A stretch of 61,655 nucleotides of DNA, taken from NCBI GenBank assembly GCA_016190625.1, contig JACPQF010000089.1, forward strand, positions 1 through 61,655. The letters run 5' to 3'. The notes beneath the pieces were generated by a model. It ran no database searches. It was not told the DNA's origin and was given only the letters and a program-made list of their open reading frames with translations. Numbering within the stretch: the stretch's first letter is position 1; each line of letters starts with the position of its first letter. A program made the translations under genes and the position numbers. This stretch comes from Chloroflexota bacterium. GTDB taxonomy: Bacteria; Chloroflexota; Dehalococcoidia; JACPQF01. Below are positions 43,239 to 46,993 of the stretch, piece after piece.

Positions 43239-44657
43239 ATGAGTTCTCGCAGGATGAAATTGGACCGCTGGCTCTGCCTGGTCGCGCTGGCCGCTTTTCT
43301 GGCTCTTCCGCCGGCGCCGGCGGCGGCCTTCGGCGGCAGCTTGCCCAGGGGGCTTCCGGATCATTTCTTCCTCGGCCTGGCCAATCACCCCGACGAGCTA
43401 AAATGGATGGTCGGCAGCGGCGTGCCCTGGGACGCACGCTATTATTACCTCTCTGGCGGTGTCAACACAGGGCAAAGCTGGACCGACTGGTTGCCGGATG
43501 GTGGCTTCGCCTCAATCTACATGGCCGATAGCGCCCGCAACGGCTACCTGCCGGTGTTCAGCTACTACCAAATCCAAAAGTCGGCCCCCGGCCTCGGGAA
43601 CAGCGAGGTCGAGATTGCCTTCAGCAACCTGAACAACCTGGACACCATGGCCGCCTACTACGCCGAGTTCAAGCTGCTAATGGAGAAGGCGCGCGCCTTC
43701 GGCAAGCCGGTGCTGGTCCACGTCGAGCCCGACCTGTGGGGCTTCATGCAGCAGCGGATCGGCGGCGGCGAGAATCCGGCGAAGATACCGGTGTCAGTGG
43801 CCTCCTCCGGCTTCAAGGACGTGAAGGGGTTTGCCAACGACCTATCGGGTTTCGGCAAGGCCCTACTCCACCTGCGGGACCGCTACGCCAGGAACGTCAT
43901 CCTCGCCGTCCACGCCTCGCCCTGGGCCACCAACCTGGACGTGTCGACCAGCAAGGACGTCAACCTCGACGTGGAGGCCATCGGGCGAAAGACGGGGAAG
44001 TTTCTCGCCTCCACCGGCAAGTGGGACCTCGTCTTCGTCGACCTGGCCGACCGGGACGCCGGCTATCTCGAGCTGGTGCAGAAGGACGGCGGATCCCATT
44101 GGTGGGACAAGAGCAACCAGACCTATCCCAACTTCAGCCGTTTTGCCCGCTACCTCGACGCCCTCTCCTCCCAGATGAGACTGCGCCTTGTCCTCTGGCA
44201 GGTGCCCGTGGGCAACACGATCATGCGGACCTCGAACAATACCGAGGGCCACTATCAGGACAACCGGGTGGAGTATTTTCTCGACCGGTCGATCGGCGCC
44301 GTCGAGGAGTATGCCCGCGCCGGGGTGATCGGCGTCCTGTTCGGCCGCGGCGCCCCCGGCCCGAGCACCTACACCGACGACAAGAAGGACGGCGTGACCA
44401 ATCCCCTGCCGATCAACGGTAATCTGGAGATGGCAACCTTGCCGGACGACGACGGGGGTTTCCTGCGCCTGAGGGCGGGTGACTATTACGGGCAGGGGGC
44501 CTTTGCGCTTCCCTCTCCCCCGAGGCAGATCGGAGCGATCCGTCTGATCCGTCTGATCGGTCTGATCGCGCTGGCGCTGCTGGCGGGATGCGGCCTTGCC
44601 GTTTGGCGAAAAAGGACTAACTCAACTGGACGGCCAGGGCCGTCAGTTGAGCGGTGA
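43239..44657 (+). CDS. Exported, membrane-anchored putative glycoside-hydrolase-like protein
   Basis: Signal peptide, aromatic/acidic motifs (HVEPDLWG, DDDGG), C-terminal TM plus RKR; degenerate 9-bp tandem repeats 44528-44572. Confidence 0.6.
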   Translation: MSSRRMKLDRWLCLVALAAFLALPPAPAAAFGGSLPRGLPDHFFLGLANHPDELKWMVGSGVPWDARYYYLSGGVNTGQSWTDWLPDGGFASIYMADSARNGYLPVFSYYQIQKSAPGLGNSEVEIAFSNLNNLDTMAAYYAEFKLLMEKARAFGKPVLVHVEPDLWGFMQQRIGGGENPAKIPVSVASSGFKDVKGFANDLSGFGKALLHLRDRYARNVILAVHASPWATNLDVSTSKDVNLDVEAIGRKTGKFLASTGKWDLVFVDLADRDAGYLELVQKDGGSHWWDKSNQTYPNFSRFARYLDALSSQMRLRLVLWQVPVGNTIMRTSNNTEGHYQDNRVEYFLDRSIGAVEEYARAGVIGVLFGRGAPGPSTYTDDKKDGVTNPLPINGNLEMATLPDDDGGFLRLRAGDYYGQGAFALPSPPRQIGAIRLIRLIGLIALALLAGCGLAVWRKRTNSTGRPGPSVER

Positions 44658-45672
44658 GCTCGTCGGCGAGGCGGCGATCGATCTGGCCATCGCTCGCCAT
44701 TCCCCGCACGTCCTGTAGGGCCTCCTGGGTCTTCTGGAGAGCGTCCCTCGTGGCGCCTTTGATAAGCGCATCCCTGACCTCGGCGATCTGCTTTTGGAGG
44801 TCCCGCCCCGCCTTGCCGTTCTTCCCCGTCGTCGGAATGCTCCTCGCCAGAGCCTCGAGCTGGCTGAGGCGTTGCAGGGGGCTGGGGACAACTGCGGTCG
44901 GCGTCGGAACCGAAGTCGCCGTCGGTGGAACAGCCGTGGGGGTAGCGGCGGGCCTGGTGGGCGTGGCGACCGGAGACGGCGATTGGGCTGTGGTACCAGC
45001 CTTCGCCTGCCATTGCCGGGGCCAGAAGATCAGGCCGAGTAGGATGCAGAGGAAAAGCATCCCGAGCGCGAGGCCGTACATTAGGGACAAACGGACCCTC
45101 CTTGAAGTACTGCCTGCGATTGCCGCTCCGTTCGCCGATGACCGCCCCCTTGGAGGTGAAGGCAGCGCAGTTGACACCCGGACCGTGGGCGAGTCGTGAG
45201 CGGCAGATTGTTGGCCCAAAAGGCCGTCGAGCATGGCCGCTGCCGAAGGGTAGCGTTCCTCGGGATTCTTGGCTAGCGCCCGCGTTACCACCTGATCGAG
45301 CCAGAGTGGCAAATCTGGCCGCAGGGTAGAAGGAGTGGCAGGCTCGCGCTCCAGGTGCTGGGCAGCAACGGCAGCGGCAAGGTCTCCTTCAAGAGGTAAT
45401 CGCCCGGTCAGCAACTGGTAAAGCATGACGCCGACGGCATAGAGGTCGGACGCCGGGGTTGCGGGCCGGCCGGCCAGCCGTTCCGGCGCCAGATAGTGGA
45501 TCGAGCCGATCACCTCTCCCGTCTGGGTCAGCGTCGCCGCGACCGCTCCTTGGGAGATGCCGAAGTCGGCGAGCTTGGCCTGGCCATCGGCGGTGAGGAG
45601 CACGTTCTGCGGCTTGACGTCGCGGTGAACCAGTCCCCGGGCGTGGACGTGGGTCAGGGTACTTGACAGCAC
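44617..45672 (-). pseudogene. 5'-truncated Hanks-type Ser/Thr kinase with TM helix
   Basis: HRDVKPQN, DFG, YLAPE present; Gly-loop and VAIK lysine absent; in-frame TAG 5 codons upstream of the GTG. Confidence 0.75.
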
Positions 45673-45691
45673 GCCCCATGCGTGCTATTAT
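45663..45691 (+). promoter_or_regulatory. Sigma70-type promoter for the aro leader
   Basis: TTGACA-17-TATTAT with extended -10 TG. Confidence 0.8.
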
Positions 45692-45719
45692 CTGGCCAGA
45701 ATTAGTCGGACGGAGTGTC

Positions 45720-45818
45720 ATGTCAGCCTTGTCTAGCCGCATTGGTCAAGCTTATTACTGGCGCTTTTACTTTACCGGGCTGCCGGCGGCAGAGGCTGTA
45801 GCTTGGCCCAGTAACTAG
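45720..45818 (+). CDS. Aromatic amino acid attenuator leader peptide MSALSSRIGQAYYWRFYFTGLPAAEAVAWPSN
   Basis: GGAG RBS; 6 of 7 consecutive codons are Tyr/Trp/Phe; followed by a terminator and DAHP synthase. Confidence 0.85.
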   Translation: MSALSSRIGQAYYWRFYFTGLPAAEAVAWPSN

Positions 45819-45838
45819 CGCCAATCCCAAGACAGCTC

Positions 45839-45878
45839 AAGCCGTAGGCAGCCGGAAAACGCCTACGGCTTTTTGTTT
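45839..45878 (+). terminator. Attenuator terminator 1
   Basis: aagccgtaggc / gcctacggctt 11-bp stem followed by tttgttt. Confidence 0.85.
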
Positions 45879-45901
45879 GGCCGGGACTGGACGGCCCGCA
45901 G

Positions 45902-45930
45902 AAGCCATAGGCAAAGCCCTATGGCTTTTT
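45902..45930 (+). terminator. Second terminator-like hairpin, similar in sequence to the first
   Basis: aagccatagg-caaagc-cctatggctt followed by ttt. Confidence 0.65.
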
Positions 45931-45943
45931 CGCGTGTGGCTCC

Positions 45944-46050
45944 GTAGTGGCCGCCGTCTCTGGCGGCCACGGGAGGCGGGCGGGCATCCTTCTAGGAAGG
46001 ACACCGCCCTTACAGCCAATTTTGGCTCCGTAGCCGTCTCTGGCGGCCAC
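45944..46050. repeat. REP/REPIN-like cluster
   Basis: GTAG-tggccgcc-gtctct-ggcggccac, an opposing ...cgcccctac, and a truncated second copy at 46030-46050. Confidence 0.65.
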
Positions 46051-46099
46051 GGAACCGGGGACCCATACAAGTAACACTTGCACACAGTGGAGGAAGAAG

Positions 46100-46993
46100 A
46101 TGAAATCGCCGGAGCTAGAAATCGAGGAATTATCGCCGGTCAAGAAAACCCGACAGGACTACAGGCTGGTCGCCGGCTCCCCCGCCCTACCCGCCAGCGT
46201 CGTCGACGTGAGAGGCGTGCCCGTTGGCGGGGAGGAGATCGTAGTGATCGCCGGCCCCTGCGCTGTGGAAAACGGGGAGCAGGTGATGGCGACCGCTCTA
46301 TCGGTCAGGGATAGTGGCGCCAGGCTGCTGCGGGGCGGCGCTTTCAAGCCGCGCACTTCCCCCTACGACTTCCGCGGCCTGGGCGAGGAAGGACTCCAGA
46401 TCCTCGCCGCCGCCGGTCGGGCCAGTGGATTGCCCATCGTAACCGAGGTGCTGTCCGAACGTCACGTCGAGCTGGTTGCCGCCTACGCCGACGTCCTCCA
46501 AATCGGGACACGCAACATGAGCTGTTTCGCCCTGCTCGAAGAGGTGGCCCGGGCTGGGAAGCCGGTTCTCCTGAAGCGGGGCATGGCGGCCAAGATCAAG
46601 GAGTGGCTCCTCGCCGCCGAATACGTCATGGCCCAGGGGAACGACCAGATCATTCTCTGCGAGCGGGGCATTCGCTCCTTCGACTCCGATTTCTGCCGGA
46701 ACACCCTCGACCTTAACGCCGTGGCCATTGCCAAGCAGGAGACCCACCTCCCCGTCATCGTCGACCCCAGCCACGCCGCCGGGCGCTCCGACATCGTGAG
46801 CCTACTCGCCCGCGCCGCTATCGCCGTCGGCGCCGATGGGCTCCTCATCGAGGTCCACCCCACGCCCGAACAGGCCCTCTGTGACGGCTCCCAATCCCTC
46901 TCCACCGGCCAGTTCCAACGCTTCATGGATGACCTGGCTCCCCTTGCGGCCGCTTGTGGTCGCCACCTCGCGCCGCTCGCCGCGCTAGTGTGA
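46100..46993 (+). CDS. aroF: DAHP synthase type I-beta, no N-terminal regulatory domain
   Basis: IAGPCAVE, RGGAFKPRTSPY, LLKRG, CERGIR, DPSH, EVHP, CDG. Confidence 0.93.
   Translation: MKSPELEIEELSPVKKTRQDYRLVAGSPALPASVVDVRGVPVGGEEIVVIAGPCAVENGEQVMATALSVRDSGARLLRGGAFKPRTSPYDFRGLGEEGLQILAAAGRASGLPIVTEVLSERHVELVAAYADVLQIGTRNMSCFALLEEVARAGKPVLLKRGMAAKIKEWLLAAEYVMAQGNDQIILCERGIRSFDSDFCRNTLDLNAVAIAKQETHLPVIVDPSHAAGRSDIVSLLARAAIAVGADGLLIEVHPTPEQALCDGSQSLSTGQFQRFMDDLAPLAAACGRHLAPLAALV

Follow-up and report, generated by a model that had tools for sequence, protein, structure and literature searches.

A candidate leader-peptide attenuator with Tyr, Trp and Phe codons upstream of a type I-beta DAHP synthase gene in a Chloroflexota bacterium

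Accounts of how carbon entry into the shikimate pathway is controlled usually invoke repressors or isoenzymes subject to feedback inhibition. In this work we describe the region preceding a gene for 3-deoxy-D-arabino-heptulosonate 7-phosphate (DAHP) synthase, which acts at this entry, in a bacterium of the Chloroflexota, class Dehalococcoidia. The window, meaning the whole stretch of DNA analysed, comprises 61,655 nucleotides (positions 1 to 61,655 of contig JACPQF010000089.1, assembly GCA_016190625.1). An original prediction, made from the sequence alone, had placed in this region a leader-peptide attenuator sensing Tyr, Trp and Phe. In what follows, we set out the elements of the leader, the alternative structures that it can adopt, its relatives in the same class and in the Verrucomicrobiota, and the extent to which it departs from the leaders already described.

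The leader and the gene it precedes

A leader of 430 nt separates a minus-strand Ser/Thr-kinase open reading frame (ORF; 44617-45672) from the DAHP synthase gene (46100-46993), and contains the features collected in Table 1. Its promoter matches the consensus at 11 of 12 positions and is the sole promoter-like site in 45300-46400 according to a scan for sigma-70-type sites, where shuffled sequences give 0.2 +/- 0.4 sites; from the position of this promoter, transcription is predicted to start at about 45698. Downstream, a short ORF with its own start codon and ribosome site is found in the 5' leader of this biosynthetic gene, located 281 nt ahead of the start codon of DAHP synthase. It carries a cluster of codons for the end products of the pathway, YYWRFYF, whose aromatic codons start at 45753 (Y12), 45756 (Y13), 45759 (W14), 45765 (F16), 45768 (Y17) and 45771 (F18). 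Such clusters are rare: only six non-overlapping windows of seven residues with at least six aromatics, this one included, occur among 6.35 million in the six-frame translation of the 3.18-Mb assembly.

Two intrinsic terminators, T1 and T2, lie between the leader ORF and the gene, folding on their own at -19.4 and -18.6 kcal/mol, respectively. T2 is a near-duplicate of T1 in which a G-to-A change in the 5' arm is matched by a C-to-T change in the 3' arm, so that the stem is kept. The region 45700-45935 as a whole has a minimum free energy (MFE) of -99.3 kcal/mol, against -84.2 +/- 4.7 for shuffled sequences (z -3.2; none of 200 as low). The elements named in the original prediction, namely a strong promoter, a ribosome-binding site (RBS), a 32-residue peptide with YYWRFYF, two terminator hairpins and a DAHP synthase, are thus all present in the sequence.

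The DAHP synthase encoded downstream (297 residues) matches NF006421 at 415 bits (cut-off 335), its residues 10-289 aligning to profile positions 58-336 of 338, and TIGR01361 at 371 bits (cut-off 267.75), which makes it a member of type I-beta. Among PDB chains, the best match is 1vs1, with 276 residues; in the alignment with 1rzm, a chain of 338 residues, the first 61 residues of that chain have no counterpart. Because the profile match starts at position 58 and the 1rzm alignment at 62, the enzyme consists of the core only and lacks the N-terminal extension, which in these DAHP synthases is the allosteric (regulatory) domain.

Table 1. Features of the leader and of the gene downstream, in coordinates of the window.
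Feature	Position	Strand	Description or basis
Sigma-70-type promoter	45663..45691	+	-35 TTGACA 45663-68; 17-nt spacer; extended -10 TGcTATTAT 45683-91 (TATTAT 45686-91, TG 45683-84)
Shine-Dalgarno GGAG	45712..45715	+	4 nt 5' of the leader ATG; from sequence
Leader ORF, 32 codons	45720..45818	+	MSALSSRIGQAYYWRFYFTGLPAAEAVAWPSN; ATG 45720, stop TAG 45816-18; within the listed frame 45663..45818
Candidate regulatory codon cluster Tyr-Tyr-Trp-Arg-Phe-Tyr-Phe	45753..45773	+	ribosome-position folding and genome-wide rarity
Protector hairpin P1	45759..45823	+	basal stems 45759-65/45817-23 and 45767-71/45810-14; MFE structures
Apical hairpin H1 of P1	45775-83/45798-806	+	MFE structures
Antiterminator AT	45775..45855	+	strand 45775-99/45832-55, 20 pairs
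AT sub-helices	45775-78/45852-55, 45780-84/45847-51, 45786-90/45841-45, 45794-99/45832-37	+	MFE structures
Terminator T1	45839..45879	+	11-bp stem 45839-49/45861-71, 11-nt loop, tail UUUUUGUUU, U-tract to 45879
Modelled relay helix 4:5	45861..45912	+	T1 3' arm and U-tract with T2 5' arm, around a small hairpin 45879-83/45892-96
Terminator T2, near-duplicate of T1	45902..45932	+	stem 45902-11/45918-27, 6-nt loop, UUUUU tail
Spacer, dispersed palindromic REP-like repeat, two copies	45936..46056	.	blastn matches on more than 10 other contigs
RBS GGAGGA (46089-94) and type I-beta DAHP synthase gene (46100-46993, 297 aa)	46089..46993	+	profile match

Alternative structures and the position of the ribosome

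In the MFE structure of the free RNA, the long protector P1 stands together with T1 and T2. The basal stems of P1 fall inside the codons TGG CGC TTT TAC TTT, and the strand 45775-99 of the antiterminator AT lies directly 3' of the last Phe codon, its pairing occupying most of the 5' arm of T1 plus the loop. AT excludes the terminator, and P1 in turn excludes AT. The AT duplex has an energy of -39.2 kcal/mol, compared with -24.8 +/- 3.4 in dinucleotide-shuffled leaders (none of 1000 as low).

Mutually exclusive structures of this kind had been anticipated, although with other helices than those found here. The protector proposed originally, 45744-52/45800-08, exists as complementarity (9 pairs) and fails as a helix, since forcing it yields -34.6 kcal/mol against an MFE of -44.1, a cost of 9.5 kcal/mol. 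The same applies to the antiterminator proposed at 45796-805/45838-47, where 9 of 10 positions can pair but the probability of the helix is 0.00 at every ribosome position; with the ribosome on W14, forcing it gives -25.4 kcal/mol, compared with -42.6 for AT and -39.7 with T1 forced. What finds support in that mechanism, on comparative and folding evidence, is a translated leader with aromatic codons gating an intrinsic terminator; the helices that were to carry it do not.

The effect of the ribosome was modelled by hiding the RNA up to 11, 13 or 15 nt beyond the first base of the A-site codon and folding the remaining 3' transcript. With the A site on any leader codon outside the aromatic cluster, the probability of T1 is about 0.97 and that of T2 about 0.95, codons bordering the cluster being intermediate. 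An A site on any codon from Y12 to F16 (edges +11 and +13) lowers both terminators to 0.00-0.02 and raises AT to 0.8-0.9; the edge at +15 moves this antitermination window to A11-R15, and at Y17 the terminators are partly lost. Codons for Tyr (Y12, Y13), Trp (W14) and Phe (F16) all fall within the modelled antitermination window, so that, in silico, the regulatory codons sit where a stalled ribosome favours AT.

Taken with the comparative evidence below, these models indicate that a ribosome-mediated leader-peptide transcription attenuator probably controls this DAHP synthase, which has no allosteric domain of its own. What the analysis shows are the elements in the sequence and their conservation, the folding energies and the logic of codon position; translation of the leader, termination in vivo and the identity of the amino acids sensed are inferred.

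Related leaders in the class and in the Verrucomicrobiota

Relatives of the window in the genome collection are class-level only. The codon pattern TAYTAYTGGNNNTTYNNNTTYAC, searched for over 401 class genomes, was found in six of them: the genome of the window (G000), four of the five genomes of one genus (g5), and a further one with an in-frame TGA, the reversed control giving none. One of the 401, G243, is flagged as unpublished; it counts in this tally and supports no claim made here. A survey was also made of DAHP synthase loci in 54 further genomes of the class, the sequence available upstream being shorter than 650 nt in four of them. In this survey, upstream short ORFs with at least five aromatics in seven residues are confined to g5, where all five genomes have one (5 of 54). 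The g5 leaders read YPYYWWFTF (YPYYRWFTF in the fifth genome) within the consensus M(R/K)P..PV..(A/V)YPYYWWF(T/I)FTRLPAGSRV(W/L)PLTGG(P/S)P. All seven distinct g5-type sequences (five genomes and two metagenome variants) hold the frame from the ATG through the cluster, over 36-44 codons, and their Tyr codons vary synonymously (TAT/TAC).

Between the window and g5, T1 shows two compensatory double changes, G-C to A-U and C-G to U-A, and a 14-bp helix equivalent to AT is present in g5, with -44.0 kcal/mol for the duplex in the g5 representative against -24.9 +/- 3.3 in shuffled sequences (none of 1000 as low). Comparison of upstream regions from relatives, one of the checks put forward with the original prediction, reveals both the conservation of the aromatic codons, in five of five g5 genomes, and covariation in T1. 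Among the loci of these 54 class genomes and the window, complete DAHP synthase genes without the N-terminal extension of about 50 residues are found in g5 and the window only.

In g5 and the metagenome variants (L051-L054, L056, L062, L065), the leader mRNAs are apparently leaderless themselves, with the ATG 7 nt after a TATCAT -10 box. A 5' stretch conserved among these leaders, GCCGGTCAAC, has its complement in GTTGACCGG, close to the end of the ORF; the counterpart of this long-range pair in the window, GGTCAAG/CTTGGCC, differs from it by a compensatory change.

The g5 loci bear directly on whether the promoter, the small ORF and the terminators could constitute an independent small gene, for a small protein or a small RNA, with the DAHP synthase being transcribed from a promoter of its own within 45935-46099. 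The 170 nt with a mobile repeat between T2 and the gene would leave space for such a promoter, both hairpins look like strong terminators, and the promoter scan is limited to sigma-70-type sites. However, that scan finds no promoter-like site in the spacer, and in g5 the homologous leader and its single terminator adjoin the RBS of the gene, which lies about 10-25 nt beyond the terminator and so leaves no room for a second promoter. Moreover, in the survey of class loci the leader is found with this type of DAHP synthase only, and the complementarity of AT and the positional logic of the codons would have no role in a small gene of this sort, which we regard as improbable.

Still less probable is a switch binding a ligand, a tRNA or a protein (a riboswitch, a T-box or a TRAP-like system) in which the ORF would be incidental. 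In favour of such a switch, Firmicutes do control aromatic-pathway genes through T-boxes and TRAP. Yet no Rfam family reaches its gathering score, by covariance models, in 45300-46400 or in five related loci, and conservation concerns the identity of the codons, which vary synonymously, and the frame, which is retained across length changes of 3n, rather than a core resembling a ligand pocket.

In another family of the class, the genome G007 has a weaker candidate leader, ..VVWPWRCYFAFSVHAMADGC (WPWRCYFAF), followed by two tandem terminators. At this locus (L003, G007:C100), a consensus-like promoter, the ORF and two cross-complementary U-tailed hairpins are found about 280-400 nt upstream of the DAHP synthase, which keeps its N-terminal extension; it is a second case of the double-terminator layout. 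Beyond the class, a phylum sample contained the window-type codon pattern in 2 of 401 genomes, G000 and one where it lies in a 12-codon open segment without a start codon. In metagenome contigs the pattern occurs at eight loci, five of them g5-like (including two pairs of identical sequences) and three unrelated and without a DAHP synthase match.

A search through the enzyme gave 18 loci, one of which, from a metagenome-assembled genome (MAG) of the Verrucomicrobiia, has MKSVHQHVSAVRASYYWFYFSQPCLRAVC followed by a terminator. The exact codon pattern for YYWFYF was then found in 13 of 301 genomes of that class, of which 11 are leaders before a DAHP synthase gene (L091, L118-L126 and L092) and two are not leaders. 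Only exact matches were used, because the pattern with one mismatch is as frequent as its reversed control. Ten of the 13 have MKSVH..AVRA(S/A)YYWFYFSQP.LRA.C and a terminator before a full-length type I-beta DAHP synthase; in one, MTSSFYYWFYFTAAVSPGVGSL and its terminator precede a DAHP synthase of type I-alpha (TIGR00034, 427 bits). Rfam contains neither of the two leader types. These leaders share with the window the order of the residues, a terminator 5' arm complementary to the 3' part of the leader, and the DAHP synthase downstream. Contrary to the window, they have a single terminator, and the enzyme keeps its N-terminal domain (ten genomes, I-beta) or is of type I-alpha (one). Each lineage retains all three types of aromatic residue: YYWRFYF in the window, YPYYWWFTF in g5, WPWRCYFAF in G007 and YYWFYF in the Verrucomicrobial leaders. 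Duplexes equivalent to AT have -33.1 kcal/mol in G007 (31 of 1000 shuffles as low) and -21.1 in a Verrucomicrobial leader (7 of 1000).

As a side observation, two MAGs of the Chthoniobacterales (L036 and L048) have short ORFs with runs of Phe, ..RGLFFFFHRIG and ..RGLFFFIHRN.., about 270-300 nt upstream of a DAHP synthase match, and may hold a Phe-type leader before this gene.

A kinetic-style analysis, in which the transcript was cut immediately 5' of the 3' arm of the terminator, was applied to leaders from the window, g5, G007 and the Verrucomicrobiota. The 5' arm of the terminator is then sequestered (0.72-0.84) for ribosomes located up to the last aromatic codon and freed about 1-4 codons later, a pattern shared by the window, six sequences of the g5 type, G007 and the two types of Verrucomicrobial leader. 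The boundary of sequestration comes after the last aromatic codon in every leader modelled (four leader types); each of them has its aromatic cluster as far downstream as a ribosome can stall without covering the AT strand.

Several observations weigh against an attenuator of this kind. A consensus terminator scan listed neither T1 nor T2; T1 escaped it because its 11-nt loop exceeds the limit of 8 nt set in the scan. With the ribosome on W14, AT prevails over T1 by just 2.9 kcal/mol (-42.6 against -39.7 with T1 forced), and F18 falls mostly outside the modelled antitermination window, while the Arg codon R15 falls inside it. In g5, which holds the nearest relatives, the full-length equilibrium model keeps T1 at a probability of at least 0.95 at almost every ribosome position and the switch appears in the cut-transcript analysis only, where the RNA without a ribosome also sequesters the 5' arm of the terminator (0.72-0.82), so that termination by default would depend on the protector forming first. 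The spacer between T2 and the gene, as said, would allow for a second promoter. Finally, a search of sequencing runs found the DNA of the window in five DNA runs labelled groundwater metagenome, and no RNA run containing it.

Two terminators, three amino acids and the place among known leaders

The second, near-duplicate hairpin had been left unexplained in the original prediction. Since T2 copies T1, the 3' arm of T1, once orphaned by the sequestration of its 5' arm, can disarm T2 by pairing with the 5' arm of the latter, and one antiterminator could thus control both terminators; this modelled pairing would account for T2. With the polymerase at 45912, when the 3' arm of T2 is not yet made, the relay helix 4:5 has -28.0 kcal/mol, against -16.9 for T2 alone, and its probability is 0.96-0.97 with the A site on Y12 to F16. 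The competing explanation is that the attenuator is real and T2 is a constitutive back-up terminator or the leftover of a local duplication, which would partly stop the read-through of T1 regardless of amino-acid supply. Two similar hairpins are automatically cross-complementary, so the relay helix could be a by-product; the g5 relatives work with one terminator; and the double change that keeps the stem of T2 puts a C-A mismatch into the helix 4:5. Against a back-up function, the relay helix already beats T2 alone at 45912, the probability of T2 is 0.00 at exactly those ribosome positions that remove T1, and an unregulated second terminator would defeat the switch. In G007, where two tandem terminators are also present, the 3' arm of T1 is fully complementary to the 5' arm of T2, with -36.1 kcal/mol against -20.6 for T2 alone. 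On balance, a back-up T2 seems unlikely, and the capture of the T2 5' arm by the T1 3' arm, as modelled, has slightly less than an even chance of being real.

In the mechanism that we propose, transcription would start at about 45698 and the 32-codon leader would be translated. When all Tyr-, Trp- and Phe-tRNAs are charged, the ribosome would proceed, the AT strand being held by P1 or covered by the ribosome, and T1 and T2 would form, ending transcription at about 45875-79 or, otherwise, at about 45930. Upon scarcity of any one of the three amino acids, the ribosome would stall with its A site on Y12, Y13, W14, F16 or, weakly, Y17, opening the base of P1 within the aromatic codons and leaving 45775-99 free. 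This strand would then pair with 45832-55 and block T1, the orphaned 3' arm of T1 would pair with the 5' arm of T2 and block it too, and the polymerase would pass the REP-like spacer and go on to transcribe the gene for DAHP synthase.

This spacer lengthens the leader and is outside the switch. Its repeat unit, ..CGTAGTGGCCGCCGTCTCTGGCGGCCACGG.., has an 18-nt core that is found in eight copies at up to two mismatches, and the minus strand of the REP-like stretch gives a sub-threshold match to RsmW (28.2 bits against a gathering score of 52). At the other end of the module, the kinase ORF on the minus strand is 5'-truncated: it has the catalytic loop as its start, matching positions 118-271 of a 563-position profile with 198 bits (cut-off 450), and is without its ATP-binding lobe. 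As the 5' end of this truncated ORF meets the -35 box of the leader, the sequence suggests that the left edge of the leader-DAHP synthase module is a rearrangement or insertion junction.

Multivalent leaders are known from other pathways, such as those of ilvGMEDA (Leu/Val/Ile) and thr (Thr/Ile), in which repression needs all of the amino acids and a shortage of any one relieves it. The E. coli trpL and pheL leaders have the same parts as the window, i.e., a promoter, a translated leader with codons for the end product just 5' of the antiterminator strand, and mutually exclusive protector, antiterminator and terminator; however, each of them carries the codons of one amino acid and serves a terminal branch, whereas the leader of the window carries those of three and serves the pathway entry. 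The ilvGMEDA and thr leaders resemble the present reading in that one leader reports several amino acids, and differ in the pathway and the codons. The closest counterpart, the aroR-aroF attenuator of Corynebacterium glutamicum, is reportedly the work of Mentz (2013) and Neshat (2014). It shares with the window a short leader ORF with mixed aromatic codons before a DAHP synthase gene, and ribosome stalling. Contrary to the window, with six aromatic codons of seven including Trp, aroR has no Trp codon, and the window further differs in its phylum, its two tandem terminators and its REP-like spacer; the resemblance, judged from descriptions of aroR, is functional only. According to passages in PMC4046766, PMC11802643 and PMC7356990, aroR carries Phe-Tyr-Phe and precedes aroF, which encodes a DAHP synthase, and an uORF rich in Ile, Leu and Val, of the multivalent leader type, has also been described (PMC11109978). 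Taken as a statement on known leaders in general, the remark in the original prediction that the trpL and pheL leaders each sense one amino acid overlooks the multivalent ilv and thr leaders as well as aroR, in which, according to the passages in PMC4046766 and PMC11802643, Phe and Tyr codons are combined.

Full-text literature searches found no description of a leader with Tyr, Trp and Phe codons, yielded, for leaders of aro genes, nothing but the C. glutamicum work, and showed no co-occurrence of tandem terminators with leader-peptide terms among the papers listed. Among earlier surveys, a passage of one from 2005 on Actinobacteria reports no conserved RNA elements for Phe or Tyr genes; one from 2010 gives leader peptides as then known only in Proteobacteria and Actinobacteria, besides its own cases in Firmicutes, and does not mention aro genes; and a re-annotation of Streptomyces lists eight leaders, none of them of the mixed aromatic kind. 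The reference list of PMC1262725, for its part, cites work on T-box and TRAP control of aromatic-pathway genes.

The presence of codons does not prove sensing, since a passage in the review PMC11802643 reports that Tyr supply had no effect on the aroR attenuator; three-way sensing is consequently put forward here as a prediction and not as a finding. The leader of the window could likewise respond to some of the three amino acids and not to others, which is what is reported of aroR (Phe, not Tyr). It has a single Trp codon, F18 lies outside the modelled antitermination window and Y17 is marginal. Furthermore, the demand for Trp may be met elsewhere: contig C19 encodes another DAHP synthase, which is full-length, includes the N-terminal domain (it matches profile positions 1-335 of 338) and lies some 420 nt beyond trpE(partial)-G-D-C-F-B-A (L128 2180-9512, minus strand), at the end of a trp operon that is cut inside trpE by the contig end, with the loss of its leader. 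On the other hand, Y12, Y13, W14 and F16 are all inside the modelled window and the three residue types are retained in every leader lineage seen, which makes restriction to a subset rather unlikely in our opinion; the chance that the leader senses all three, judged by codon position alone, is evenly balanced.

The remainder of the assembly, which is 64.9% complete and consists of 160 contigs, includes a second chorismate-binding gene, apparently PabB-like by its N-terminus (contig C141), and a match to prephenate dehydrogenase; prephenate dehydratase was not found in these 65% of the genome. A scan for other leader attenuators in the assembly, by enriched short ORFs plus hairpins, gave 89 candidates, and the 12 examined were rejected, since they overlap or adjoin other frames of longer ORFs or have no gene downstream.

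The mechanism and its target are, then, already known; novelty lies in a codon set that covers three aromatic amino acids, Trp among them, in the lineages, in the link to an enzyme without its regulatory domain, and in the double terminator with a plausible relay. As a tentative generalization, with somewhat more against it than for it, tri-aromatic leaders (Tyr-Tyr-Trp, then Phe/Tyr/Phe) in different phyla would gate type I-beta and type I-alpha DAHP synthases as sensors of a shortage of any of the three amino acids, with a strand-exchange relay in the window (2:3 frees 4; 4:5 blocks 5:6). If so, leader-peptide attenuation would extend to the class of the window and to the Verrucomicrobiota, lineages for which no description was found, and would add a family that is absent from Rfam. 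The leader of the window would offer a test case for two terminators placed under one antiterminator by a relay, and metabolic engineering could use it as a compact natural sensor with three inputs for the supply of aromatic amino acids. In this bacterium, one RNA switch, reading the charging of the Tyr, Trp and Phe tRNAs jointly, would apparently govern a DAHP synthase devoid of its own regulatory domain.

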